From IMG/VR virus record IMGVR_UViG_2636415673_000006: a stretch of DNA of 44,007 bases; one strand, given 5' to 3'. The position numbers and the translations under genes are program-made. How positions within the stretch are numbered: the first letter of the stretch is position 1; each line of letters opens with the position of its first letter. The stretch is from a virus. Lineage: Duplodnaviria > Heunggongvirae > Uroviricota > Caudoviricetes. Positions 1 to 34,145 of the stretch are shown one piece after another. The notes under the pieces were generated by a model. It ran no database searches. It was not told where the DNA came from and saw only the letters and a program-made list of their open reading frames with translations.

Positions 1-525
1 TCACTAGATTCTGACGATTTCCAGAAGGGAGATTCAGCAGGCCAGCATCTGTAATCATTCAGATTTGCTGGCTTGCTGCTAAATATGGTTGCTAAGAAAA
101 ATAGCAGGCCAGTAATTTATTCAGATTACTGAATATAATAATTTTTCAGGAACGGTTATGCTGAAGGTAGTATGTTTAATCGACACAATTATTTGCTGAG
201 TCTAATATGAGGTGACATTTTTATGATCACTGACCAGCAAGACTGACCCGTATTGATTAGCCTGATTATTGGCAACTTATTGGGGTAGTCATTTTGACAT
301 CGAATGGGGGAGGTTTCCAGTTAAGTTCACGAATGCATGATGATTTGCGTTCACATATCGAAGTACTGGTTGACTATACTAAGGATTTTAAGATAACTCA
401 CTGATTGTAAGTGGGTTATTGCGAGGGGGATGATAAATGGTGTCCCCTGCAGACATCTACTTGAGGATGCAGGGGATTGATTGGAATGGTATTTTTGGTA
501 TGTGAAAAATATTTTACTCGCTATT

Positions 526-726
526 TTACCCATTGGCGCGGCTTAAGAGCTTATTTTTGAATTCACAATGGTCACGATATAACCATCTTGCTCGCCCGTG
601 GATAACTTTGGCTTTTGGCAGGTCGCCGGACTTAATCCGGTCGTAGATGAAGGTTTTACCGAAGCCAGTATCAGCCATGATGAATTTCAAATCAACCAGT
701 GAATCAGGTTGTAGTTCGTGTTGCAT
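526..726 (-). CDS. Excisionase-like / AlpA-family HTH DNA-binding protein (putative Xis)
   Basis: 66-aa ORF with HTH-like core (DLKFIMADTGFGKTFIYDRIKSGDLPKAKVIHGRARWLY) typical of AlpA/Xis-type excisionases; last gene of the leftward early operon; RBS GGAGA before the ATG. Confidence 0.55.
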   Translation of the reverse strand: MQHELQPDSLVDLKFIMADTGFGKTFIYDRIKSGDLPKAKVIHGRARWLYRDHCEFKNKLLSRANG

Positions 727-770
727 GAGTGCTATCTCCGAATAGGGAATCGAACCTGCAAATCAGGCAA

Positions 771-790
771 TAAAAAACCGCCATCAGGCG
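771..790 (-). terminator. Rho-independent terminator-like hairpin (leftward)
   Basis: Plus strand ccgcc-atca-ggcgg preceded by A6; on the minus strand this is a GC stem followed by a T-run. Confidence 0.35.
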
Positions 791-1008
791 GCTTGGTGTT
801 CTTTCAGTTCTTCAATTCGAATATTGGTTACGTCTGCATGTGCTATCTGCGCCCACAGCATCCAGTGGTCATAGCAGTCGTTGATGTTCTCTGCTTCGAT
901 AACTCTGTTGAATGGCTCTCCATTCCATTCACCAGTGACTCGGAAGTGCATTTATCATCTCCATAAAACAAAACCCGCCGTAGCGAGTTCAGATAAAAGA
1001 AATCCGCA

Positions 1009-1809
1009 TTAAGCGGCGTCGGTGAATTCAAATAAAAAACCGGCTTGCGCCGGCTCTCTCATCTTTCTGTCTACCCATGCTGATATCGATGGTGGGTGCA
1101 CCTTTTCAATAGCTGCGCGAAGTACAGATGTACGTGCCAGTTTGTCGGTAATCTCAGGAAATCGCTTCTCTGTCTTCGGTACGTTAACAGCAACATTAGT
1201 AGAATCCGCACTGGCGAACGGATACATACCAAGAACTCTCACGTCGAGCATTCGAAGACCATGAATTTTCACTTTCAAATTACGATTGATATAAAGCTCA
1301 GTGAAAACTTCATCCATTCTCTGTTCCCACCATTTAGAGCGTATGTGCCTGTGTGGGCCGCAGCATCCAATCGCCACCCATTCAAATTTGCCAGAAAGGC
1401 GTAAAAGACGATCAATTGATTCGTCGGTATGCCAGACCGGAACCGCTTTTGATTTTAGCCAATCAGGAACCAACTCAATCTGCTTGTCGTTTTCTGCCTC
1501 TGTCCCTTCGATAACGTCAGGTATAAGAAACCATTCAATTCTGCTGAACCACTTCCCAACAAAATCGTAGAATTTTGCTCGTCTCTTACTCCAGTCTACC
1601 GGAGTGCCTTTCTTTAATGCTTTCATCCAGTCGCTAAAAGCGCCGTTATCAAGGCGTATATCACAAGGGAACATGGCAATCTTTTTCATCTGCGCTGGTC
1701 TGGCAAATGAAACAAAAGCCCCACCATCACGGTAAAGGGCTTTAATCAGCATATCTGTAGGGGCATGCGCATCCCCCCATATTGGGCTGCCGTGAAAGTG
1801 GATGGTCAT
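1009..1809 (-). CDS. Conserved lambdoid early-left protein; candidate tRNA-guanine-transglycosylase-like (DpdA-like) DNA-modification enzyme
   Basis: 266-aa ORF. Motif RLDNGAFSDW resembles the TGT substrate-binding motif LTDSGGFQ, and the C-terminal half (FEWVAIG...HGLRML...FASADST) loosely parallels the TGT GGLAVGE...YLMGVG...MFDCV blocks. No PP-loop (SGGxDS), so not PAPS-reductase/DndC-like. The gene is confident; the function is tentative. Confidence 0.45.
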   Translation of the reverse strand: MTIHFHGSPIWGDAHAPTDMLIKALYRDGGAFVSFARPAQMKKIAMFPCDIRLDNGAFSDWMKALKKGTPVDWSKRRAKFYDFVGKWFSRIEWFLIPDVIEGTEAENDKQIELVPDWLKSKAVPVWHTDESIDRLLRLSGKFEWVAIGCCGPHRHIRSKWWEQRMDEVFTELYINRNLKVKIHGLRMLDVRVLGMYPFASADSTNVAVNVPKTEKRFPEITDKLARTSVLRAAIEKVHPPSISAWVDRKMREPAQAGFLFEFTDAA

Positions 1810-1867
1810 ATTATCCCCATATAAAAGAAATCCCCGCGAGTGCGAGGATAGTTACTTGTTCATATTA

Positions 1868-2167
1868 TTAATCGTCAATATATTTTGAGCATTGTGGGCA
1901 ATCATCAATCCCACAATACGATTCATATCCATCCTTTATTGCGTCGCGGGCTTCAGTAAGAGTATTGAATAAGTTGCAGCTATTATCTTTTTGATATAGG
2001 TAAGTTCCTAATTTATAAGCAGAAGAAGCATCATTTCCGCTGTCTAAAATTACATCGTTATGGATTCTGCACCTTGCAAGAACTCCTGATCCCATAAGGG
2101 TCTGCATAGCCCATTGCTCTTGATCTTCACACAAATCATGAATGCTCATTTCAACACCTCTCTTCAC
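1868..2167 (-). CDS. Hypothetical small Cys-rich protein (AT-rich moron-like gene)
   Basis: 99-aa ORF in a low-GC stretch; C-terminal CGIDDCPQC motif suggests metal binding. Confidence 0.45.
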   Translation of the reverse strand: MKRGVEMSIHDLCEDQEQWAMQTLMGSGVLARCRIHNDVILDSGNDASSAYKLGTYLYQKDNSCNLFNTLTEARDAIKDGYESYCGIDDCPQCSKYIDD

Positions 2168-2263
2168 GTTTCACACACGTTAAGATTAACAGTGTTTTTA
2201 CATGCTTTGGAAGATTTATTTTATAAAAACTCTTTTAATACAAATAGATATAATAGTTCACTA

Positions 2264-2920
2264 TTATAGCTCCTTTAATCGAGGCGGTTCTGGTAGAGGC
2301 ATCCAGTGGGTTACACCGCCAATTGGCTCATCGTCGTCGTACTCCAATGCGGCTATATAGAACCCGTCACGACGAGAATAAGAAATCCCTGACATTACAA
2401 TGCCATCCGAAACAACAATAATGTCACCCGTTTCTTCCGGCATTCGCTCACTACAGCTTATCCAACCATCCGGAATTACCGGAGAGTTGCCGCGTTCTTT
2501 AATGTGCAAGCGAGGCTCACCATCTTTTGGTTCAGGCCACTGGCGCTCCATGTTGATCTTCAATTTATCTTCCATAGCAGCGGTAATTTCAGCATCGCTG
2601 ATGCCAGCACGGCGCTGTGCATCCCACAACAGGAACTGCATATCAGCCCACTCGCTGAGATCGTCTGGTTCGGCTGCGGCTTCCAGAGCCTCTTTTGAGA
2701 GGTGTTTCAGTGGACCAATGGGGCCAACGCAGCCAAATGTGGAGTCAGACCATTTGGCATGCTCGTGGTGAATCTGTTCGCGTTCCAGTGAGGCGAAAGC
2801 GATTTTAAATGCTGTAAGCATGTGTGCTTGATCGTTGTCGAGTCCGAATGGCATTTCATCTCGTGCTGACTCAATACTGGTAATCGTATTTTGTAGCCAT
2901 TCTTTGGTAAAAGTGCTCAT
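2264..2920 (-). CDS. Lambdoid early protein with DUF551-like C-terminus (DUF550/DUF551 family)
   Basis: 218-aa ORF; C-terminal motif GVTHWMPLPEPP is characteristic of DUF551 proteins common in lambdoid prophages; stop overlaps the upstream gene start (coupling). Confidence 0.5.
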   Translation of the reverse strand: MSTFTKEWLQNTITSIESARDEMPFGLDNDQAHMLTAFKIAFASLEREQIHHEHAKWSDSTFGCVGPIGPLKHLSKEALEAAAEPDDLSEWADMQFLLWDAQRRAGISDAEITAAMEDKLKINMERQWPEPKDGEPRLHIKERGNSPVIPDGWISCSERMPEETGDIIVVSDGIVMSGISYSRRDGFYIAALEYDDDEPIGGVTHWMPLPEPPRLKEL

Positions 2921-3288
2921 CGTAAAATATCCTCTATACTGGTAAGTCCTTCATTATTTAGCCAGATCATGGCGTCATCCGGCAACTTGCTGTCTGGTTT
3001 GGCGTTTTTGAGAGAGGAACTCAGTCGCTTAATCCACATTGTCACCTCAGTAATGCGCCTGTCTTTGCCTTCCAGCTCAACACGCAGCTTCCCTACCGTT
3101 AGCGCAATATCCTCGTTCTCCTGGTCGCGGCGTTTGATGTATTGCTGGTTTCTTTCCCGTTCATCCAGCAGTTCCAGCACAATCGATGGTGTTACCAATT
3201 CATGGAAAAGGTCTGCGTCAAATCCCCAGTCGTCATGCATTGCCTGCTCTGCCGCTTCACGCAGTGCCTGAGAGTTAATTTCGCTCAC
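2917..3288 (-). CDS. Ead/Ea22-like early protein (coiled-coil)
   Basis: 123-aa acidic coiled-coil ORF in the ea22 position of lambdoid phages; overlapping start/stop with neighbours. Confidence 0.4.
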   Translation of the reverse strand: MSEINSQALREAAEQAMHDDWGFDADLFHELVTPSIVLELLDERERNQQYIKRRDQENEDIALTVGKLRVELEGKDRRITEVTMWIKRLSSSLKNAKPDSKLPDDAMIWLNNEGLTSIEDILR

Positions 3289-3506
3289 TTCGAACCTCTC
3301 TGTTTACTGATAAGCTCCAGATCTTCCTGGCAACTTGCACAAGTCCGACAACCCTGAACGGCCAGGCGTCTTCGTTCATCTATCGAATCGCCACACTCAC
3401 AAGAATGAGTGGCAGATATAGCCTGGTGGTTCAGACGACGCATTTTTATTGCTGTATTGCGCTGTAATTCTTCGATTTCTGATGCTGAATCAATGATGTC
3501 TGCCAT
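3285..3506 (-). CDS. TraR/DksA-family C4 zinc-finger protein
   Basis: 73-aa ORF with CECG...x17...CRTCASC four-cysteine zinc ribbon typical of phage TraR/DksA-like proteins. Confidence 0.7.
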   Translation of the reverse strand: MADIIDSASEIEELQRNTAIKMRRLNHQAISATHSCECGDSIDERRRLAVQGCRTCASCQEDLELISKQRGSK

Positions 3507-3559
3507 CTTCCATTAATCTCTGAATTGTTGGTTAATACGCTTGAGGGTGAATGCGAATA

Positions 3560-3582
3560 ATAAAAAAGGAGCCTGTAGCTCC
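3560..3582 (-). terminator. Rho-independent terminator (leftward) downstream of the DGQHR gene
   Basis: Plus strand A6-ggagc-ctgta-gctcc; on the minus strand a 5-bp GC stem followed by TTTTTTA. Confidence 0.45.
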
Positions 3583-3659
3583 ATGAAGATTTTGTTTTTC
3601 ATGCTCACCGTTCCTTAAAGACGCCGTACAGCATGCTGATATGAGACAATGTTGATTCA

Positions 3660-4724
3660 TTAAGTTGATTCCAGACTTCCTTTGGTAAAAGCTTGTATCA
3701 GTCTGTTTGCTGCTGCTTTCTGCGCTGCCACATTGGCAATAACAGATAGTTTTTCCTGGCTGGCTTTCGTGCAGATCCCCGCCCAGTTATCCATCAGAAA
3801 AAAATCCTCTCTTTCTGCAGAGCTGGTAGTTGCACATAGTTTTTCGATCATAGAAGTTATTTCTGCGATGGAATGATTAACCATCATCTGTTGAACCGCA
3901 AAACCGAAAGCGTTAATCATTACTCCATGGAACTGAATATAATCGCGCTTGTACGTAGCGTGGTGTACACCATGTCGGATTGAGTCAATCTGAGTTAGTG
4001 TAATCCATGCCTCCCAGACAGATTCTATATATCCCATTTCAAGTTGTTGATTGCCGTTCCTGGCGAACTTTGACGTTGCATCAGTGAGTGCCTTGAAACT
4101 CACCCACATATTACTTTTTAATGGCACTACGTTGTGTTCAAAATCGGTTATATCGGCAAATACAGTATGTTGGGTCAGGAAGGATATCATTCCCTGAGCA
4201 ATATCATCCCGGCCGTTATACGCCATATTGATGGTCGCTGATGGCTTAGAAACGTTGTTATTTATGTCCGAAAAGAACTGCTGCCGGGTTTTTAGCGGCA
4301 GATTCATTGTAAGCATCATGGGAACCATGAGCGTTGATGGGGAACTTCGGCAAAATATCTCAATGCCAGCTGCACGATGTTGACCATCAAAAAGTTTTAT
4401 TTCGGCGTCGAGGGGAATTCTGGCTATACCAACATTTGTGTTGCCAAACGGTACAAATTCTATATTCGAATCACAGTTACCTACGAGAGGGGGAATGATA
4501 AAAGGCTCATTTCTTGAGTCTGCGTTAGTGAGATAATTTAAAAATTTTCGTACTCGATTTGGATTAATTTCTCGCTGAGAGCGTTCCAGTGTATGGCCGT
4601 AATTATCTGAAGCGAGGAAACGAGCCAGCGATCTTCCTGGTATGGTAAGGAAGAGTGTAACAGTACCACCCTGTACACCTTGCGATGCCGGAAATTCGAA
4701 TGAATGATTACCAACCTGACTCAT
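3660..4724 (-). CDS. DGQHR-domain protein (DndB/DpdB-like, ParB-like fold)
   Basis: 354-aa ORF containing the exact DGQHR signature (KLFDGQHRAAGIE) about 120 residues from the N-terminus, as in DndB/DpdB family proteins. Confidence 0.75.
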   Translation of the reverse strand: MSQVGNHSFEFPASQGVQGGTVTLFLTIPGRSLARFLASDNYGHTLERSQREINPNRVRKFLNYLTNADSRNEPFIIPPLVGNCDSNIEFVPFGNTNVGIARIPLDAEIKLFDGQHRAAGIEIFCRSSPSTLMVPMMLTMNLPLKTRQQFFSDINNNVSKPSATINMAYNGRDDIAQGMISFLTQHTVFADITDFEHNVVPLKSNMWVSFKALTDATSKFARNGNQQLEMGYIESVWEAWITLTQIDSIRHGVHHATYKRDYIQFHGVMINAFGFAVQQMMVNHSIAEITSMIEKLCATTSSAEREDFFLMDNWAGICTKASQEKLSVIANVAAQKAAANRLIQAFTKGSLEST

Positions 4725-4885
4725 ATATCCTCCTGTTTATTATTTATCTTCTCAGCCAGCCCCTGTGCTTTCAGTGGATTTCTGATAACAGAAAGACCGG
4801 GAAATACCCAGCCTCGCTTTGTAATGGAGTAGACGAAAGTGATCGCGCCTACCCGGATATTATCGTGAGGATGCGTCATCGCCAT
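4721..4885 (-). CDS. Small hypothetical protein (54 aa) translationally coupled between exo and the DGQHR gene
   Basis: Hand-translated [57 protein letters not shown]; stop overlaps the DGQHR ATG as ATGA; start overlaps the exo 3' end. Below the 60-aa track cutoff. Confidence 0.3.
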
Positions 4886-5556
4886 TGCTCCCCAAATACA
4901 AAACCAATTTCAGCCAGTGCCTCGTCCATTTTTTCGATGAACTCCGGCACCATCTCGTCAAAACTCGCCATGTACTTTTCATCCCGCTCAACCACGACAT
5001 AATGCAGTCCTTCACGCTTCATACGCGGGTCATAGTTGGCAAAGTACCAGGCATCTTTTCGTGTCACCCACATGCTGTACTGCACCTGGGCCATGTAAGC
5101 CGACTTTATGGCCTCGAAACCACCGAGCCGGAACTTCATGAAATCCCGGGAGGTAAACGGGCATTTCAGCTCAAGGCCATTGCCGTCACTGCATAAACCA
5201 TCGGGAGAGCAGGCGGTGCGCATACTTTCGTCGCGATAGATGATCGGGGATTCGGTAACATTCACGCCGGAAGTGAATTCAAACAGAGTTCTGGCGTCGT
5301 TCTCGTACTGTTTTCCCCAGGCCAGCGCCTTAGCATTAACTTCCGGAGCCACACCGGTGCAAACCTCAGCCAGCAGGGTGTGGAAGTAGGACATTTTCAT
5401 GTCAGGCCACTTCTTTCCTGAGCGGGGCTTTGCTATCACGTTGTGAACTTCTGAAGCGGTGATGACGCCGAGCCGTAATTTGTGCCATGTATCATCCCCC
5501 TGTTCGACAGCTCTCACGTCGATCCCGGTACGCTGCACGATAATGTCCGGTGTCAT
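4876..5556 (-). CDS. exo: Lambda Exo (Red-alpha) 5'-3' exonuclease
   Basis: 226-aa ORF recognised as essentially identical to lambda Exo ([40 protein letters not shown]...). Confidence 0.95.
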
Positions 5557-6338
5557 GCTGCCACCTTCTGCTCAGTGGCTTTCTGTTTCAGGAATCCAAG
5601 AGCTTTCACTGCTTCGGCCTGTGTCAGTTCTGACGATGCGCGAATGTCGCGGCGAAATATCTGGGAACAGAGCGGCAATAAGTCGTCATCCCATGTTTTA
5701 TCCAGGGCGATCAGCAGAGTGTTAATCTCTTGCATGGTTTCATCGTTAACCGGAGTGATGTCGCGTTCTGGCTGACGTTCTGCAGTGTATGCAGTATTTT
5801 CGACAATGCGCTCGGCTTCATCCTTGTCATAGATACCAGCAAATCCGAAGGCCAGACGGGCACACTGAATCATGGCTTTATGCCGTAACATCCGTTTGGG
5901 ATGCGACTGCCACGGCCCCGTGATTTCTCTGCCTTCGCGAGTTTTGAATGGTTCGCGGCGGCATTCATCCATCCATTCGGTAACGCAGATCGGATGATTA
6001 CGGTCCTTGCGGTAAATCCGGCATGTACAGGATTCATTGTCCTGCTCAAAGTCCATGCCATCAAACTGCTGGTTTTCATTGATGATGCGGGACCAGCCAT
6101 CAACGCCCACCACCGGAACGATGCCGTTCTGCTTATCAGGGAAGGCGTAAATTTCTTTCGTCCACGGATTAAGGCCGTACTGGTTGGCGACGATCAACAA
6201 TGCGATGAACTGCGCATCGCTGGCATCACCTTTAAATGCCGTCTGGCGAAGAGTGGTGATCAGTTCCTGTGGGTCGACAGAATCCATGCCGACACGTTCA
6301 GCCAGCTTCCCTGCCAGCGTTGCGAGTGCTGTACTCAT
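5553..6338 (-). CDS. bet: Lambda Bet (Red-beta) single-strand annealing protein
   Basis: 261-aa ORF recognised as lambda Bet ([37 protein letters not shown]...); overlaps the exo start. Confidence 0.95.
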
Positions 6339-6343
6339 CCGTT

Positions 6344-6640
6344 TTATACCTCTGAATCAATATCAACCTGGTGGTGAGCAATGGTTTCAACCATGTACCG
6401 GATGTGTTCTGCCATGCGCTCCTGAAACTCAACATCGTCATCAAACGCACGGGTAATGGCTTTTTTGCTGGCCCCGTGGCGTTGCAAATGATCGATGCAT
6501 AGCGATTCAAACAGGTGCTGGGGCAGGCCTTTTTCCATGTCGTCTGCCAGTTCTGCCTCTTTCTCTTCACGGGCGATCTGCTGGTAGTGACGCGCCCAGC
6601 TCTGAGCCTCAAGACGATCCTGAATGTAATAAGCGTTCAT
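6344..6640 (-). CDS. gam: Lambda Gam (RecBCD inhibitor), GamS-length form
   Basis: 98-aa [24 protein letters not shown]... matches lambda Gam from its internal start; an in-frame stop lies upstream, so the long N-terminal form is not encoded. Confidence 0.9.
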
Positions 6641-6715
6641 GGCTGACCTCCTGAAAATGGCTGTGAAAATATCGCCCGCGAAATGCCAGGCTGATTAGGA
6701 AAACAGGAAAGGGGA

Positions 6716-7006
6716 TTAGTGATTCAGGCCGTTACCGCGTCCGTCGAGAAAAACTTCCACGAGCAAATCACGGGTATAAGTGCGCTCGATGCCGCGATGC
6801 AGATAAAGCCGTCCGCGTAAATTAGCTGATGCAGTCCAGGTACCATCTTTGTGTTTGACCAGCATTCCTGGCATGACCGCACCTCGATTAACGGTCTGCG
6901 TTCCATAATGTTGATGAACCATAAAAACTCCTGCCCGTAAGCTGGGCTGCTGAACATATAGAGACTTCTGCGCGTATTCAGGCGGTGGATGGCCGCCGGT
7001 TGTCAT
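6716..7006 (-). CDS. Early-left protein in the kil position (possible Kil-like host-division inhibitor)
   Basis: 96-aa ORF with RBS (gagg) before the ATG; first gene leftward of the putative OL/pL region. Function is by position only. Confidence 0.35.
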
Positions 7007-7195
7007 AACTAAGCCGCCTCGTTGAAGCGACTAAGGTATGAAATGTTGAGTTAATTTCAGCTGGTCACACCGACGTTCACGCGTCCGTTTCACCCCTCGC
7101 ACTCCCCGAAGCCTGCTGAAATTCAAACTGCGGATCTAAGCGGTCATCGCAACGGTGAATCAGGTAGTTGCCGTATCGTTGTGTTGTTGCGATGA

Positions 7196-7250
7196 ACTTA
7201 TTTAAAACTATAGTTGTTTTATCGTCAACAACAAAAGTTGTTTTATTGGC
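7196..7250. promoter_or_regulatory. Candidate OL operator cluster / pL region
   Basis: Clustered imperfect palindromes built on AACAAC/GTTGTT half-sites (aaaactatagttgtttt, caacaacaaaagttgtttt) that resemble the sites between cI and cro. Confidence 0.35.
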
Positions 7251-7373
7251 TGTTTTAGATATAACTGGTTGTATTTAGGATGGATTTATTTTGTGACTTG
7301 AATCGCATAGCGATAACTGAAGCGAGGTTATGGTGGTTTTTTTAACGGTGTGTGTGATGAGGGGAGGGCAAAA

Positions 7374-7402
7374 GAAAACCCGGCACGGTGACCGGGATTC
7401 TT
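7374..7402 (-). terminator. Rho-independent terminator downstream of the repressor gene
   Basis: Minus strand cccgg-tcaccgtg-ccggg followed by ttttctttt. Confidence 0.5.
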
Positions 7403-7517
7403 ACGCCGTTAGGTAAAGATATTATTGCGGTGGCTTAATATTACTACCTAGAGCAAAGATAGGAATTAGTTCTTTACTGAATGAGCACAATGCCCAGTTG
7501 ATAATTTTTAATTGGTA

Positions 7518-8207
7518 CTACCCATGCTTCCTATATGTCTGCGGCATGCTCCCAATAACCTTACCGAAGATGAACACCCGGTTCATCTCGTCTTTCTCGA
7601 TCGGGTCCCACGGTGAGTAGCTTTTGTTATCAGAGATGACCAGCAGCTTATCCTTCATCATTTGCAGGCGCTTTACATGGGCTGTGTCGTCGTACAGAAA
7701 CGCATAGATACCATCACCGTCGAAAGATTTAACTGTGATATCAACGAACAGCAGATCACCTGGTTCGATCGTTCCTGACATGCTGTCACCACGCACGTTA
7801 ATGATGCGGATATTTTCCGCCTTCCTACCATCGAACATGTGACGAGCATCGTCAAACGAGTACTCAACCGAGCGTAGAACTTCTACAAACTCACGGTTGA
7901 TGACTCCCGGCCCAGCACTGACTTCTATATCAAGAACGTCAATCTTGAAGTATTTGGAATGGCTGACAGTTGATTGTATTGGTTGCACTGTACTGTCTGA
8001 CATATTTCCAACGCCAGAAGATAACCATTCTGCGCGCACACCCAAAGCGTTCGCGATCTCCACGATTTTAGTTGTTTGATTAGCTTTCCCTGTTTCGATT
8101 TTCTGAATAGCAGCCTGGCTAACCCCGACCAAATCCCCAAGCGCCTTTTGTGTAAGGCCTCGCGCTAATCTGGCTTCTTTAAGTCTTTCTGAGAGTGTTG
8201 TTTTCAT
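7518..8207 (-). CDS. cI: CI-type prophage repressor (HTH_XRE + S24 LexA-like peptidase domain)
   Basis: N-terminal HTH (LSERLKEARLARGLTQKALGDLVGVSQAAIQKIETG) and C-terminal S24 motifs (GDSM...VKRL). Start placed at the internal Met (MKTTLSERL) at 8207; the track ORF extends to 8273. Confidence 0.85.
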   Translation of the reverse strand: MKTTLSERLKEARLARGLTQKALGDLVGVSQAAIQKIETGKANQTTKIVEIANALGVRAEWLSSGVGNMSDSTVQPIQSTVSHSKYFKIDVLDIEVSAGPGVINREFVEVLRSVEYSFDDARHMFDGRKAENIRIINVRGDSMSGTIEPGDLLFVDITVKSFDGDGIYAFLYDDTAHVKRLQMMKDKLLVISDNKSYSPWDPIEKDEMNRVFIFGKVIGSMPQTYRKHG

Positions 8208-8224
8208 AGTCCAAATGTACAACC

Positions 8225-8290
8225 AAGGTTTTATTCCATCAAACGAAAATGGTTGTTGACTAAAAACAACCATAGTTTTAATCTTGATTC
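8225..8290. promoter_or_regulatory. Candidate OR operators / divergent pRM-pR region
   Basis: Intergenic region between divergent cI and cro containing the palindrome atggttgtt-gactaaa-aacaaccat and a third half-site (acaaccaagg). Confidence 0.45.
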
Positions 8291-8311
8291 AAATTAACCA
8301 CGGAGGTTGTT

Positions 8312-8542
8312 ATGAACCCAGCTATCAAAACAGCGATCAATATCGTTGGTTCACAAAAGAAACTGGGCGCTGCTTGCGAAGTTTCACAGCAGGCCGTCTA
8401 TAAGTGGCTTCACAACAAAGCAAAGGTATCCCCTGAACATGTCGGCAGCATTGTTACGGCTACTGGTGGAGTAGTGAAGGCATACCAGATTCGCCCGGAT
8501 CTTCCGAAGTTGTTTCCACACACCGAAAAGAACGCAGCTTAA
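8312..8542 (+). CDS. cro: Cro-like HTH regulator (YdaS/Cro family)
   Basis: 76-aa ORF divergent from the repressor, RBS GGAGG, HTH-like core (GSQKKLGAACEVSQQAVYKWL). Confidence 0.7.
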   Translation: MNPAIKTAINIVGSQKKLGAACEVSQQAVYKWLHNKAKVSPEHVGSIVTATGGVVKAYQIRPDLPKLFPHTEKNAA

Positions 8543-8611
8543 ATTTCCATTTCACGCTCTTTAACAATAAGCAATCAACTTAACAGTCAATTCAAACTAA
8601 AGGAGTCAATT

Positions 8612-9151
8612 ATGCAACCACTTACATACCAACAGACTAGCGGATTTAGCCCGACTGCGGTGATAAATCGTTCTCAAACAAAACAGGTGCCAGGCCACGA
8701 AAAAATCCGTGATGCCGTCCGCGCCTGGTCGGCTGTAGATAATCAGGATGTCGTTGCCACACTCATTGTGAATGAGTATCGGGAGCAGGGCGGCGGCACC
8801 ATCGATTTCCCTGATGATGTCAGCCGTGCACGCCAGAAGCTGTTCCGCTTCCTCGATAACAAATTCGATTCTGAAAAATACCAAAATAACGTGCGTGAAC
8901 TGACCCCGGCAATTCTGGCGGTACTACCGCTGGAATATCGCGGTTACCTGGTTGAGCAGGATAGCTTCATGGCTCGGCTGGCTGAAATGGAAAAGGAACT
9001 CAGTGAGGCAAAGCAGGCGGTCATTCTCAACGCACCACGCCACCAGAAACTGAAGGAAATTAGTGAAGGTATTGTGTCGATGTTTCGTGTGGACCCAGAT
9101 CTGGCTGGTCCATTGATGGCGATGGTTACTACCATGCTGGGGGCGATATGA
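8612..9151 (+). CDS. YdaT-like protein in the cII position (putative regulatory protein)
   Basis: 179-aa ORF after cro with RBS AGGAG; positional analogue of cII. Family assignment by recollection only. Confidence 0.4.
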   Translation: MQPLTYQQTSGFSPTAVINRSQTKQVPGHEKIRDAVRAWSAVDNQDVVATLIVNEYREQGGGTIDFPDDVSRARQKLFRFLDNKFDSEKYQNNVRELTPAILAVLPLEYRGYLVEQDSFMARLAEMEKELSEAKQAVILNAPRHQKLKEISEGIVSMFRVDPDLAGPLMAMVTTMLGAI

Positions 9152-9237
9152 CAGGTTCAGAAATGGCGAAAGCCGGTCTGCTGGAACAGAACCGACTTTC
9201 AGGTGCAAATCGTAACACACTCATTGCGGGAGGAATT

Positions 9238-10167
9238 ATGGCAAACACTGCTGAGATATTCAATTTTCCAGTGCCGGATGCGGCACAAAAGGAGCCGCGC
9301 GTGGCAGATCTCGATGATGGTTATACGCGCATTGCAAATGAGTTGCTGGAAGCTGTGATGCTGACCGGATTAACACAGCACCAGCTTCTGGTCTTTCTGG
9401 CTGTCATGCGCAAAACATATGGCTTTAATAAAAGACTGGATTGGGTGAGCAACGAGCAACTTTCCGAATTGACCGGGATATTGCCGCACAAGTGTTCTGC
9501 TGCAAAAAGCGTTCTGGTAAAGCGTGGGATTCTTATTCAGAGCGGGCGGAATATCGGCATTAATAATGTGGTCAGTGAATGGTCAACATTACCCGAATCA
9601 GGTAAGAAAAATAAAGTTTACCTGAAAGAGGTAAATTTACCTGAATCAGGTAAGAAAAGTTTACCCAAATCAGGTAAAGGCGTTTACCCGAATCAGGTAA
9701 ACACAAAAGACAAACTAACAAAAGACAATATAAAACCTTTTTCGTCCGAGAATTCTGGCGAATCCTCTGACCAGCCAGAAAACGATCTTCCTGTGGTGAA
9801 ACCGGATGCTGCAATTCAGAGCGGCAGCAAGTGGGGGACAGCAGAAGACCTGACCGCCGCAGAGTGGATGTTTGACATGGTGAAGACTATCGCACCATCA
9901 GCCAGAAAACCGAATTTTGCTGGGTGGGCTAACGATATCCGCCTGATGCGTGAACGTGACGGACGTAACCACCGCGACATGTGCGTGCTGTTCCGCTGGG
10001 CATGCCAGGACAACTTCTGGTCCGGTAACGTGCTGAGCCCGGCCAAACTCCGCGATAAGTGGACCCAACTCGAAATCAACCGTAACAAGCAACAGGCAGG
10101 CGTGATAGCCAGCAAACCAAAACTCGACCTGACGAACACTGACTGGATTTACGGGGTGGAGCTATGA
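9238..10167 (+). CDS. O: Replication initiator O (lambda O family)
   Basis: N-terminus (ANTAEIFNF...VADLDDGYTRIANELLEA...KTYGFNK) parallels lambda O; contains the ori iterons internally. Start set at ATG 9238 with RBS gggagg; the track ORF begins at 9148. Confidence 0.85.
   Translation: MANTAEIFNFPVPDAAQKEPRVADLDDGYTRIANELLEAVMLTGLTQHQLLVFLAVMRKTYGFNKRLDWVSNEQLSELTGILPHKCSAAKSVLVKRGILIQSGRNIGINNVVSEWSTLPESGKKNKVYLKEVNLPESGKKSLPKSGKGVYPNQVNTKDKLTKDNIKPFSSENSGESSDQPENDLPVVKPDAAIQSGSKWGTAEDLTAAEWMFDMVKTIAPSARKPNFAGWANDIRLMRERDGRNHRDMCVLFRWACQDNFWSGNVLSPAKLRDKWTQLEINRNKQQAGVIASKPKLDLTNTDWIYGVEL
9589..9700. repeat. Origin iterons (ori-lambda type) inside the O gene
   Basis: Five ~19-bp direct repeats of consensus tttaccc(g/a)aatcaggtaa at about 23-bp spacing, followed by an A-rich tract (acacaaaagacaaactaacaaaagacaatataaaa). 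Confidence 0.8.
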
Positions 10168-30057: not shown

Positions 30058-31537
30058 CACCATTCCGTCGAATACGCTGGTTCCGTTGTTTTATGCGGAA
30101 ATGGATAACCAGGCGGCGAATACTGCACAGGACAGCGGAGCATCGTTGCTGATTGGTCACGCCAATAACGGTGCAGAGATTGTTGCCAACAGTCTGGTGC
30201 TGATGCCGTCGGCAGACTATGCACGCCAGATTTGTGGTGCGGGAAGTCAGCTGGCGCGTATGGTCGAGGCTTATCGCCAGACCGACCCGTTTGGCGAGCT
30301 GTATGTGATTGCCGTTCCGGAAGCCGCAGGCGCGGCGGCAACGGTTACTCTGACGGTGACCGGGGCGGCAACCGAAACCGGCACGGTGAATGTGTATGTG
30401 GGACATACCCGCGTGCAGGCACCGGTGACCAACGGCGATAACGTCGCGACCATTGCCAGCAGTATCCAGGATGCTATCAATGCCGTTCCGGCCCTGCCGT
30501 TTACGGCCTCATTTTCGGCTGGCGTGGTCACACTGACCGCGCGTCATAAGGGACTTTGCGGGAATGAAATTCCTGTCAGCCTCAATTACTACGGCTTTGG
30601 TGGGGGCGAAGTGCTGCCAGCGGGTGTACAGATTGCTGTGGCGACGGGTACCGCCGGAACGGGCGCTCCTGTTCTCACCGGTGCGGTGGCTGCAATGGCG
30701 GATGAGCCGTTTGATTATATCGGTCTGCCGTTCAACGACACGGCCTCCGTTAACACGCTGGTGACCGAGATGAACGATACCAGCGGTCGCTGGAGCTATG
30801 CGCGTCAGCTGTATGGTCATGTGTATACGTCAAAGACCGGTACGCTGTCAGAACTGGTGACCGCAGGTGACCAGTTTAACCAGCAGCACATTACCCTGGC
30901 GGGGTACGAAAAAGAAACCCAGACACCTGCCGACGAGCTGGCGGCAAGCCGTACCGCCCGCGCAGCGGTGTTTATCCGCAACGATCCGGCACGTCCCACG
31001 CAGACCGGTGAGCTGGTGGGTATGCTGCCTGCGCCGAAGGGGAAACGGTTCACGATGACCGAGCAGCAGACCCTGCTGTCTCATGGCGTGGCAACGGCGT
31101 ATGTCGAAAGCGGGGTACTGCGCATTCAGCGTGATGTCACCACGTACAGGAAAAATGCTTACGGGGTTGCGGATAACAGCTACCTCGACAGCGAGACGCT
31201 GCATACCAGCGCGTATGTGCTGCGCAAACTGAAATCCGTCATTACCAGTAAGTACGGGCGTCACAAGCTTGCCAGTGACGGTACCCGCTTTGGTCCCGGT
31301 CAGGCGATTGTCACCCCGGCGGTGATCAAAGGGGAACTGCTGGCAACCTACCGTCAGCTTGAGCGTGCGGGGATCGTGGAAAACTACGAACTGTTTAAGC
31401 AGTACCTGGTTGTGGAGCGTGATGCCAGCGATCCGAACCGCCTGAACACGCTGTTCCCGCCTGACTATGTTAACCAGTTGCGTGTCTTTGCCGTGGTTAA
31501 CCAGTTCCGTCTTCAGTATTCAGAGGAGTCCGCATAA
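30041..31537 (+). CDS. Contractile tail sheath protein (Mu gpL-like)
   Basis: 498-aa ORF followed by a ~118-aa tube gene, a frameshifted chaperone pair and a tape measure: the Mu-like myovirus tail arrangement. Confidence 0.7.
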   Translation: MTISFNTIPSNTLVPLFYAEMDNQAANTAQDSGASLLIGHANNGAEIVANSLVLMPSADYARQICGAGSQLARMVEAYRQTDPFGELYVIAVPEAAGAAATVTLTVTGAATETGTVNVYVGHTRVQAPVTNGDNVATIASSIQDAINAVPALPFTASFSAGVVTLTARHKGLCGNEIPVSLNYYGFGGGEVLPAGVQIAVATGTAGTGAPVLTGAVAAMADEPFDYIGLPFNDTASVNTLVTEMNDTSGRWSYARQLYGHVYTSKTGTLSELVTAGDQFNQQHITLAGYEKETQTPADELAASRTARAAVFIRNDPARPTQTGELVGMLPAPKGKRFTMTEQQTLLSHGVATAYVESGVLRIQRDVTTYRKNAYGVADNSYLDSETLHTSAYVLRKLKSVITSKYGRHKLASDGTRFGPGQAIVTPAVIKGELLATYRQLERAGIVENYELFKQYLVVERDASDPNRLNTLFPPDYVNQLRVFAVVNQFRLQYSEESA

Positions 31538-31893
31538 TGGCCCGTATCGGGGGAACCTGTTATTTCAAAATTGACGGTCAGCAGCTATCGCTGACCGGCG
31601 GCATTGAGGTGCCCATGAACAGGACGGTCAATGATGACATCATCGGCCTGGACGGTTCAGTGGACCGCAAGGAAACTCACCGTGCGCCTTATGTCAAAGG
31701 GACCTTCAAGGTGCCGAAGAATTTTCCGGTGAGCAAAATCACCTCGTCTGATGAGATGACCATCACTGCCGAGCTGGCGAACGGTCAGGTCTATGTACTG
31801 TCGTCTGCCTGGCTGCACGGCGAAGCGAACCATAATGCCGAAGAAGGCACGGTCGATCTTGAGTTCCACGGTGAAGAAGGGGATTACCAGTAA
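31537..31893 (+). CDS. Tail tube protein (Mu gpM-like)
   Basis: 118-aa ORF directly after the sheath gene. Confidence 0.6.
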   Translation: MARIGGTCYFKIDGQQLSLTGGIEVPMNRTVNDDIIGLDGSVDRKETHRAPYVKGTFKVPKNFPVSKITSSDEMTITAELANGQVYVLSSAWLHGEANHNAEEGTVDLEFHGEEGDYQ

Positions 31894-32162
31894 TGAAAGA
31901 GCTTGAGTTAAAGAAACCGATTACCGCTCATGGCGAGACACTCTCCGTACTGGAGTTTGATGAGCCCACCGGGAAAGATGTCCGCGAGCTGGGGTATCCC
32001 TACCAGATGAATCAGGATGAGTCCGTCAGACTTCTGGCGCATGTGGTGTCGAAATACATTGTGCGGCTGGCGAAAGTGCCGCAAAGCTCTGTCGACCAGA
32101 TGTCTCCGGCAGACCTGAATGCAGCGGCGTGGCTTGTGGCTGGTTTTTTCCTCCAGGCCTGA
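31893..32162 (+). CDS. Tail assembly chaperone (upstream ORF of frameshift pair)
   Basis: 89-aa ORF between tube and tape measure; contains the slippery heptamer near its 3' end. Confidence 0.55.
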   Translation: MKELELKKPITAHGETLSVLEFDEPTGKDVRELGYPYQMNQDESVRLLAHVVSKYIVRLAKVPQSSVDQMSPADLNAAAWLVAGFFLQA

Positions 32163-32311
32163 CGGCTGAATACCTCACTGATCGCTTCTTTGACTGCGCC
32201 AGCTACTGGCGCATTAATCCCTTCGAATTGCTGAATATGCCGATCAGTGAAATTCCCTTGCTGGTCAGTCAGGCAAACAGGATAGAGCAGGAGAAACGCA
32301 CACATGGCTGA
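32129..32311 (+). CDS. Tail assembly chaperone frameshift extension (-1 frame)
   Basis: ORF in the -1 frame relative to 31893..32162, overlapping it and ending at the tape-measure start; predicted fusion about 139 aa. Confidence 0.5.
   Translation: MACGWFFPPGLTAEYLTDRFFDCASYWRINPFELLNMPISEIPLLVSQANRIEQEKRTHG
32144..32150 (+). other. Programmed -1 ribosomal frameshift slippery site (T TTT TTC)
   Basis: Heptamer TTTTTTC in the zero frame of the chaperone ORF, 10 nt before its stop; the -1 frame stays open to 32311. Confidence 0.5.
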
Positions 32312-34145
32312 ATTTGAGCTTAAGGCGTTGATCACCGGTGTCGACAGGCTTTCTCCCGCGCTGTCGAAAATGCAAAAGAAAATCCGGGGATTTAAACGCC
32401 AGGCGGAAGAAGCGTCACAGGGTGGGCTGGCGCTTGGTGGCGGACTGGCTGCGGGTCTGACGCTTTCCCTGAAATCTTATGCCGATCAGGAAAACGCCGC
32501 CACCGGGCTGAAAGTCGCCATGATGGATGCGAACGGCGAGGTTGGAAAGAGCTTTCAGGACATCAATAAACTGGCTATTGGTCTGGGTAACCAGCTACCC
32601 GGTACAACGGCTGATTTCCAGAACATGATGCAGATGCTGGTGCGTCAGGGGATCCCGGCAGAAAACATTCTGGGTGGTGTGGGTAAAGCGACAGCTTATC
32701 TTGCGGTACAACTGAAAAAAACACCGGAAGCGGCTGCTGAGTTTGCTGCAAAGATGCAGGATGCTACCGGAACGGCGTCAGAAGACATGATGGGGCTGTT
32801 CGACACTATCCAGAAGGCGTTTTATCTTGGCGTTGACGATACCAACATGTTGTCCTTCTTCACTAAAACCAGTTCTGTTCTGAAGATGGTGAACAAGGAC
32901 GGTCTTCAGGCTGCACAGAGCCTTGCCCCCATCAGCGTCATGATGGATCAGATGGGGATGAACGGGGAGTCGGCAGGTAATGCCCTGCGAAAAGTTATCC
33001 AGTCCGGATTAAGCGTTAAGAAAATCAGGGACGTCAATAAAGTCATGGCCCGCCAGAAACTCGGGGTACAGCTCGATTTTACTGACGGCAAAGGAAGTTT
33101 TGGCGGTCTTGATAACATGTTCAGGCAACTGGCAAAGCTGCGAAAACTGACCGACGTTAAGCGAACAGGTGTACTTAAGGCAATATTTGGTGATGATGCC
33201 GAAACCCTTCAGGTGGTCAATGCACTAATCGATAAAGGAAAGGATGGCTACGATCAGATCCAGCAGAAGATGAATAAACAGGCCAGCCTGAATAAACGTG
33301 TTCAGGCCCAGCTTGGTACGCTGTCCAACCTGTGGGAGGCAATGACGGGGACCGCAACTAACGGCCTTGCGGCTATTGGCGGCGCATTTTCTGGTGACGC
33401 CAAAAATATCACGCAATGGCTGGGGGAGTTAGGGGAAAAATTCACGAAGTTTGCGGATGAAAATCCCCGGGTTATTCGCGGCGTCGTCGGGCTTGCTGCC
33501 GGTCTTGCGATTCTGAAACTGGGATTGATGGGCGTTGGCGGGGCCATCAGTATTGTCAGCAGGATCATGTCGATGACGCCGATTGGAATGATTGCGACGG
33601 CGATAGCCCTGGCTGCGGGATTAATTATCACTAACTGGGATGTTGTCGGACCTTATTTCAAGAAGCTCTGGGAAACCATTGGTCCTTATTTTGAGGCTGG
33701 CTGGGAACTTCTGAAGAAGGTTTTTGCCTGGTCGCCGCTGGGGATGGTAATCAATAACTGGGGACCGGTTGTTAAGTGGTTTCAGGATATGTGGGACAAG
33801 CTGAAGCCAATTATTGAGTGGTTTACCGACAGTTCCGGTGACACGGTCGATGCCATTAACTCTGCGCAGTGGGGCGCGGGTGCTTATGATGCTTATGGGA
33901 CGGGATTCCCGGCGCGGGGATACACACCTTATCCGGCGATGGATCCGGCTCAGGCAAACAACGCCTCCGATGCCACAGGCCCGAATCCCTTCATGATTAA
34001 CAAAGCTTCTGCGCCAAAAGTTGACGGTGAGATCAAGGTCTCTTTTGTGAATTCGCCTCCGGGTATGCGGGTTATGGAAACGCGATCCAGCGGTATCGAC
34101 GTGAATCACGACGTTGGCTACACCCGATTTGGTATGGGGGGCTGA
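32304..34145 (+). CDS. Tail tape measure protein
   Basis: 613-aa ORF, alpha-helical and Ala/Gly-rich with internal TM-like segment (VVGLAAGLAILKLGLMGVGGAISIV). Confidence 0.75.
   Translation: MAEFELKALITGVDRLSPALSKMQKKIRGFKRQAEEASQGGLALGGGLAAGLTLSLKSYADQENAATGLKVAMMDANGEVGKSFQDINKLAIGLGNQLPGTTADFQNMMQMLVRQGIPAENILGGVGKATAYLAVQLKKTPEAAAEFAAKMQDATGTASEDMMGLFDTIQKAFYLGVDDTNMLSFFTKTSSVLKMVNKDGLQAAQSLAPISVMMDQMGMNGESAGNALRKVIQSGLSVKKIRDVNKVMARQKLGVQLDFTDGKGSFGGLDNMFRQLAKLRKLTDVKRTGVLKAIFGDDAETLQVVNALIDKGKDGYDQIQQKMNKQASLNKRVQAQLGTLSNLWEAMTGTATNGLAAIGGAFSGDAKNITQWLGELGEKFTKFADENPRVIRGVVGLAAGLAILKLGLMGVGGAISIVSRIMSMTPIGMIATAIALAAGLIITNWDVVGPYFKKLWETIGPYFEAGWELLKKVFAWSPLGMVINNWGPVVKWFQDMWDKLKPIIEWFTDSSGDTVDAINSAQWGAGAYDAYGTGFPARGYTPYPAMDPAQANNASDATGPNPFMINKASAPKVDGEIKVSFVNSPPGMRVMETRSSGIDVNHDVGYTRFGMGG

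Follow-up and report, generated by a model that had tools for sequence, protein, structure and literature searches.

A DGQHR-domain gene in the exo-xis cargo slot of a lambda-like Escherichia coli prophage

How does a gene for a DGQHR-domain protein come to stand among the early recombination genes of a prophage, and what might its product do there? The question is raised by the IMG/VR record IMGVR_UViG_2636415673_000006, a stretch of 44,007 nucleotides (referred to here as the window) whose left end is the early-left (pL) operon of a lambda-like Escherichia coli prophage, encoded on the minus strand. A DGQHR/DndB-family gene lies there at 3660-4724 (minus strand) and specifies a protein of 354 amino acids. 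A preliminary description had rightly assigned the gene to the early-left operon, and had proposed that it forms a self-contained unit, coupled to a 54-residue open reading frame (ORF) on its upstream side and followed by a terminator of its own. Alignment with lambda and with other loci identifies the gene instead as a normal piece of prophage mosaicism, standard cargo of the known exo-xis variable region. As to its function, the reading that we favor, and that we hold with modest confidence, is an autonomous, early-expressed accessory gene whose product acts alone as a nucleoside triphosphate (NTP)-gated DNA-binding protein.

The inserted cassette and its joints

Two tracts of lambda backbone flank the DGQHR gene: positions 4722-6722 match lambda 31194-33193 at 97.3% identity, and positions 3070-3640 match lambda 30177-30747 at 95.8% (blastn). 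Breakpoints in the blastn comparisons with lambda and with two E. coli prophages, L003 and L004, delimit an intervening cassette at ~3641-4735 on the minus strand, in which a Shine-Dalgarno sequence, the DGQHR ORF and 19 bp stand in place of lambda 30748 to ~31205, a segment comprising orf63, orf61 and ~90 bp. The GC content of the cassette is 42.8%, as against 52% for exo and bet. Judging from these alignments, only one gene has been inserted; the noncoding DNA of the cassette amounts to just 19 bp, which indicates that it brings no cis site with it, and a search for local repeats near the cassette found none.

Both joints can be followed in the junction alignment. On the right, lambda homology ends after AATAATAAAC, ~12 nt before the DGQHR ATG; the AGGAGG Shine-Dalgarno sequence (4729-4734, minus strand), located 4 nt before the ATG, arrived with the cassette, the minus strand of this region reading AAACAGGAGGATATATG where lambda and L004 have GAGGGGCTGT/GGGGGCTGT. 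On the left, lambda homology resumes 19 nt beyond the DGQHR stop codon, at the remnant 3' end (…GVFKER*; 3605-3640, minus strand) of a backbone ORF that precedes the predicted terminator t2 in lambda, L003 and L004. This ORF is annotated by the Prokaryotic Genome Annotation Pipeline (PGAP) as a 71-residue hypothetical protein in L003 and L004 (3106-3321), and is unannotated in NC_001416 (lambda ~30712-30747). A 42-residue ORF at 3532-3660 was rejected as spurious, since it spans the recombination joint.

The same slot houses different cargo elsewhere. Three genes share one ATG position, namely orf63 in lambda and L003, a Dam-like methyltransferase gene in L004, and the DGQHR gene in the window. 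Among 5426 complete E. coli genomes, 283 (~5%) carry the DGQHR cassette in this slot, and ~3550 have the same flanks around other cargo. A segment identical to that of the window is present in E. coli 2021CK-01784, with the same PGAP names.

The two elements that the preliminary description had joined to the DGQHR gene both proved to be lambda backbone, orf60a and t2, which occur in thousands of prophages with other cargo. The upstream ORF (4721-4885, minus strand) is orf60a, a member of the DUF1317 family (Pfam, 103.8 bits against a cut-off of 22.3, E 4.2e-30; phrog_1998). As had been described, it begins within the end of exo (4876-5556), and the DGQHR ATG (4724-4722) lies on its TGA (4723-4721) in an ATGA overlap. 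Alignment with lambda Orf60a, together with the PGAP start in the identical prophage, places the family start at Met3 (4879), which gives a protein of 52 residues and creates another ATGA overlap, with the exo stop codon. Since bet and exo also overlap by 4 nt, a run of such overlaps links the genes from bet through exo and orf60a to the DGQHR gene; 4-nt ATGA coupling is an operon-wide trait, with nothing peculiar to the DGQHR gene. The window ORF and lambda orf60a part after ...INNK, the C-terminus of the former being shortened by the cassette joint, and Orf60a measures 60, 53 or 52-54 residues according to the downstream cargo (60 in lambda, 52-54 here). The gene follows exo regardless of what lies downstream, and in thousands of E. 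coli genomes orf60a (86-90% identical) is followed by orf63 or by a Dam methyltransferase gene. At locus L014, orf60a is 90% identical to that of the window and the DGQHR protein only 66%, a disparity that points to recombination at the joint. Within the lambda exo-xis region orf60a is a gene that has been studied: its translation in lambda has been confirmed by ribosome profiling, according to a review (PMC8614690), and deletion phenotypes are on record (PMC6213356).

A hairpin with a T-run does follow the DGQHR gene, as reported earlier, 78 nt past the stop codon (GGAGCTACAGGCTCC plus T6; 3562-3582, minus strand, the hairpin and TTTTTT being at 3582-3568; folding energy -8.6 kcal/mol, z = -2.6). 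Its DNA, however, is 94-96% identical to that of lambda, L003 and L004, all of which lack a DGQHR gene, and it corresponds to t2, a predicted terminator of lambda and phi24B located between orf61 and orf73 (PMC4195576, Table 4); the published t2 is AAAATCATCAGGGAGCTACAGGCTCCTTTTTTATTATT and the window has AAAATCTTCATGGAGCTACAGGCTCCTTTTTTATTATT, which differs in two places, one at the base of the published stem and one just 5' of it. The hairpin is therefore not the DGQHR gene's own terminator. In the window the start codon of orf73 follows it at a distance of 56 nt, and in lambda, quantitative PCR has found mRNA to be lower downstream of t2 (PMC4195576). Upstream of the DGQHR gene, inside orf60a, a terminator-like hairpin with a 9-bp stem (4793-4815, minus strand) equates, with two base changes, to t1 of the lambda exo-xis region in the same published table; the region around it (4780-4830) has a folding energy of -16.6 kcal/mol (z = -3.0).

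Separately, a 29-residue ORF (MKNKIFMELQAPFLLFAFTLKRINQQFRD; 3513-3602, minus strand), conserved in lambda as MNMKSKIIRELQAPFLLFAFTLKRINQQFRD, begins 2 nt beyond the stop codon that precedes it and stops 6 nt short of the start of orf73; the t2 hairpin and T-run fall within its coding sequence. This ORF could correspond to one of the additional small ORFs that ribosome profiling has reported in lambda (orf2311/orf2313, in PMC8614690).

The DGQHR protein, its relatives and its neighbors

Inspection of the 354-residue protein confirms the exact DGQHR signature read earlier from the translation, at residues 113-117, and the family hidden Markov models score far above their cut-offs (TIGR03187, 188.8 bits against a curated cut-off of 58.85; PF14072, the Pfam DndB family, 158.2 bits against 29.1). 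The DGQHR domain is defined by three motifs, QR, a near-invariant DGQHR pentapeptide and FxxxN (PMC4619093), which appear here as Q50-R51, D113-G-Q-H-R117 and F151-S-D-I-N155, and which are invariant or nearly so in 44 homologs. Approximately 90 invariant columns are retained among homologs that are 52-73% identical; at the level of sequence comparison, such conserved columns are a sign of purifying selection on the protein. In an AlphaFold2 model built from the 44 homologs (predicted local distance difference test score 85.5; predicted template-modeling score 0.73), the N-terminal domain adopts the ParB/sulfiredoxin (Srx) fold, in keeping with the ParB-like fold that the preliminary description had anticipated, and the C-terminal half (~residues 210-348) is helical, without a nuclease motif.

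The closest characterized relative is DndB (DptB; TIGR03233), encoded in the dnd phosphorothioation clusters of Salmonella Cerro 87 and Streptomyces lividans, with which the protein shares the PF14072/TIGR03187 domain, the three motifs and a length class of ~355 residues. The whole of its 354 residues aligns to DndB, covering profile positions 3-305 of 355. The TIGR03233 equivalog score is nevertheless only 106.9 bits (E 1e-30) against a cut-off of 328, which places the protein in a paralogous clade, rather than as DndB itself; DndB is likewise its sole match in PADLOC (E 4e-37). The family is small, with 586 matches at E <= 0.001 among 1.84 billion cluster representatives at 50% identity. Existing annotation names the product a DGQHR-domain protein (PGAP, in hundreds of genomes) or phrog_7901 (PHROGs), and literature searches on DGQHR, DndB-like, phage-encoded DndB, PF14072 and DUF1317 proteins found no function described for prophage DGQHR proteins.

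Two side observations concern the wider family. More distant homologs (30-39% identical) occur in 83-kb Vibrio phages (L012, Vibrio phage PS14A.1, 7989-9461) and in many of the representatives P0133-P0160; these proteins are 450-540 residues long and have an additional C-terminal region. A 5.5-kb contig assigned to a 'Bacillota bacterium' metagenome-assembled genome (L013, JAEWTL010000063.1) encodes a DGQHR protein 100% identical and a DUF1317 ORF 96% identical to those of the window, and probably reflects contamination or mis-binning.

Does the gene travel with a partner? To look for shared neighbors, an all-against-all clustering was made of every ORF in 27 loci, which represent many Enterobacterales genera. 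Homologs 59-67% identical to the window protein are found in Salmonella phage SPN1S, in Klebsiella phages and in prophages of Serratia, Tatumella, Enterobacter, Citrobacter, Lelliottia, Rahnella and others, and where neighbors are annotated they lie between repressor or recombination genes and the integrase gene; these relatives belong to the early-left operons of other enterobacterial prophages. No neighbor family was common to more than ~10 of the 27 loci, and no conserved partner gene was found among them: the top clusters were antisense artefacts inside the DGQHR gene, or repressor, cro and cII-like genes. DUF1317, the family of the small upstream ORF, directly precedes the DGQHR gene in just 7 of the loci and is not upstream of it in the other 20. 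Elsewhere the upstream neighbors include HTH_ParB, Rv2179c-like exonuclease and RdgC genes; an MT-A70-like methyltransferase gene is directly downstream in 4 loci (with a 4-nt overlap in SPN1S), and DUF550 is also among the immediate neighbors. We conclude that the DGQHR gene has no obligate neighbor or partner gene.

Two Klebsiella prophages present an arrangement of their own, in which a gene for a 262-residue HTH_ParB (Spo0J-like) protein is directly upstream of the DGQHR gene (L006, 5216-6004; L002, 5088-5873). In L006 the HTH_ParB gene overlaps the DGQHR start by 4 nt, placing two ParB-fold proteins in tandem.

A proposed early role and its alternatives

Under the reading of an autonomous accessory gene, the cassette would have recombined into the backbone at the conserved joint where orf60a ends, replacing orf63 and orf61. 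From its position it would be transcribed as an early gene by read-through from pL, between the predicted terminators t1 and t2, in the manner of lambda orf63 and orf61; in lambda, the exo-xis genes are transcribed early from pL (PMC4195576, PMC8614690), and in the window the minus strand from pL to the DGQHR gene showed no sigma-70-like site. Translation would start from the cassette's own AGGAGG site, at the ATG that overlaps the orf60a stop codon. The setting resembles the lambda exo-xis region (orf60a, orf63, orf61, orf73, ea22, ea8.5), a non-essential, early-transcribed accessory region, in its backbone (96-97% identical on both sides), its slot, the orf63 start-codon position and its predicted t1 and t2. 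It departs from lambda in that orf63 and orf61, which encode small pro-lytic modulators, are replaced by one 354-residue ParB-fold protein with its own ribosome-binding site, and in the length of Orf60a.

By analogy with its relatives, the most likely activity of the protein is NTP-gated DNA binding, in the manner of a switch in which the N-terminal domain would bind the nucleotide. DndB is an ATP-modulated DNA-binding repressor of dndBCDE (PMC4507180), and DpdB, of the Dpd 7-deazaguanine system, is a DNA-stimulated ATPase (PMC10164549); ParB and KorB are CTP-gated DNA clamps, and a DndB-like protein binds both ATP and GTP (PMC4507180, PMC10164549, bioRxiv 10.1101/2025.10.10.680097). Unlike the CTP-gated clamps ParB, KorB and PadC, the window protein has no detectable sequence similarity to them, no HTH_ParB domain and no parA/parS partner, and its nucleotide motif is different. 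Lacking both a nuclease domain and an obligate partner, the protein would work by itself, and its target would lie beyond the cassette; given that the cassette lacks cis DNA and moves between unrelated backbones, this target is probably DNA, of the host or generic, or else a host factor. The role of the protein, seen by comparison with the other cargo of the region, would probably be that of an early host-takeover, counter-defense or developmental modulator. The functions suggested in the preliminary description (DNA-binding regulator, anti-defense factor or component of a modification system) span too wide a range for a specific test.

Several points weigh against this reading. The proposed activity is extrapolated from relatives that are ~30% identical or less, the protein falls short of the DndB equivalog cut-off, and the target itself is a guess. 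Foldseek matches in the PDB are not significant, and we found no solved structure of a DndB-clade protein. In addition, no N-like antiterminator gene could be seen in the stretch from the presumed pL to the kil-like gene (window 7000-7520, minus strand), although the operon contains the predicted terminators t1 and t2.

The locus bears on more than this one prophage. The cassette is carried by about one in twenty complete E. coli genomes and has relatives across Enterobacterales prophages, and its slot belongs to a region whose genes modulate prophage induction and the choice between lysis and lysogeny, Shiga-toxin phages included. An exactly mapped, swappable slot in a lambda backbone also makes clean isogenic tests easy to build.

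A more ambitious proposal, which we regard as doubtful, is that prophage DGQHR proteins constitute a new class of stand-alone ParB-fold NTPases that manipulate DNA-modification chemistry early in infection, either as a loader or activator of the phage's modifying enzyme (DpdA here, the MT-A70 methyltransferase in SPN1S-type phages) or as a DndB mimic that rewires host phosphorothioation. The two versions can be weighed one by one, and each is unlikely.

In the second version, the protein would mimic DndB against host phosphorothioate systems, binding dnd promoters or host DndB, altering phosphorothioate modification and evading or disarming restriction of the DndFGH/DndI type; if true, this would offer escape from modification-dependent or modification-sensing defenses. 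The kinship with DndB, the repressor activity of DndB and the fact that phages do target Dnd systems, as with JSS1_004 (PMC12345140), are consistent with such a role. However, dndBCDE occurs in only ~1.8% of bacterial genomes (PMC8569181), a poor fit to a cassette found in 5% of E. coli genomes and to relatives in many genera, and the equivalog score is far below the cut-off. In contrast to DndB, the window gene sits in a prophage early operon, and neither it nor any of the 27 loci has dndCDE nearby, the neighbors being prophage early genes. The DndB operator motif, TACGN10CGTA, was not found in the 44-kb window (0 matches against 0.23 expected, a count with no bearing on binding activity).

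The first version, which is just as unlikely, casts the protein as a DpdB-like helper ATPase or loader that aids a DpdA-like transglycosylase (inserting 7-deazaguanine into phage DNA) here, and the adjacent methyltransferase in SPN1S-type phages. A DpdA-like gene is indeed present in the same operon (1009-1809, minus strand): its 266-residue product, for which Pfam and NCBIfam have no match, is matched by phrog_887 'queuine tRNA-ribosyltransferase' (E 4.8e-101) and shares 97% identity with gp29 of phage HK106 (a queuine tRNA-ribosyltransferase in RefSeq) and 56% with its homolog in Salmonella phage 7-11. On these similarities it is likely a phage DpdA, a 7-deazaguanine DNA transglycosylase; no preQ0 synthesis or transporter gene was seen near it. 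Bacterial DpdA requires the ParB-fold ATPase DpdB (PMC10164549), whose activity is stimulated by DNA and by DpdA and is needed for transglycosylation. DpdB and the window protein are alike in joining a ParB/Srx-fold N-terminal domain to a helical C-terminal part that lacks a nuclease motif. The MT-A70-like genes downstream of four DGQHR homologs, and the Dam-like methyltransferase gene that fills the same slot in other prophages, also agree with a helper function.

The DpdB reading nevertheless encounters several obstacles. The DpdB motif is DGQQR (PMC10164549), as in DUF262-like proteins, whereas that of the window protein is DGQHR. The DpdA allele is present in 82 of the 5426 complete E. coli genomes and is contiguous with the cassette in only 2, and a comparison of 283 cassette carriers with 82 allele carriers leaves at least 201 cassette carriers without it; co-occurrence is confined to the window and one other E. 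coli genome, and no DpdA was found within 6-8 kb in the other 25 loci, those that are not copies of the window's prophage. Phage HK106 has a near-identical DpdA and no DGQHR or DndB-family gene. In the window itself the DpdA-like gene lies 1.85 kb downstream of the DGQHR gene, from which it is separated by t2 and four unrelated genes. The DpdA-like gene and the DGQHR cassette assort independently, and the DpdB reading was rejected as the main one on the grounds of the motif, the poor co-occurrence counts and HK106.

It is very improbable that the protein serves the prophage in defense or superinfection exclusion, as a DUF262/GmrSD-like sensor made in the lysogen. Defense genes are frequent in prophage accessory regions, and the fold is held in common with the NTPase domains of BrxU, SspE and DndI; those DUF262 domains, however, like that of GmrSD, belong to defense effectors and are fused to HNH/DUF1524-type nucleases, whereas the window protein has no nuclease or other effector domain, aligns over its full length to DndB and matches nothing else in PADLOC. 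Moreover, no promoter-like site was found upstream of its gene, which lies deep within the repressed pL operon and is linked to exo and orf60a by translational chaining.

Least credible of all is one co-inherited module of the orf60a-like ORF, the DGQHR gene and the terminator: the ATGA overlap is real, the same 4-nt overlap is present in the seven loci with DUF1317 directly upstream, and divergent pairs occur in SPN1S, Citrobacter, Enterobacter and Lelliottia (DUF1317 48-62%, DGQHR 64-66% identical), but the 20 loci in which DUF1317 is not upstream, the other cargo behind E. coli orf60a, the unequal divergence at L014 and the presence of t2 without a DGQHR gene tell strongly against it.

The surrounding operon

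In order, the operon begins with a repressor gene (7518-8273) and continues on the minus strand with a kil-like gene, gam (6344-6640), bet (5553-6338) and exo, the lambda exonuclease gene (4876-5556; Pfam YqaJ, E 4.7e-30), which is backbone and 97% identical to lambda. Downstream of t2 the backbone resumes with orf73 (3285-3506, minus strand), whose product is a TraR/DksA-type zinc-finger protein (Pfam zf-dskA_traR, TIGR02419, phrog_54) described as Orf73 in PMC8614690. Next in order are an Ea22-like gene, a dATP/dGTP-pyrophosphohydrolase-DUF551 gene (2264-2920), an ea8.5-like gene, the DpdA-like gene and an excisionase-like gene.

Rfam returned zero matches across window positions 1-10000, either to a known RNA element or to an antitermination RNA. 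AACAAC/GTTGTT motifs recur in the presumed pL/operator region, at ~7215-7245, and the immunity region belongs to the YdaS/YdaT type, unlike that of lambda. At 2264-2920 (minus strand), a dATP/dGTP pyrophosphohydrolase (DUF550) is fused to DUF551 in a single protein of 218 residues, further nucleotide-metabolism cargo in the same operon as the DpdA-like gene.

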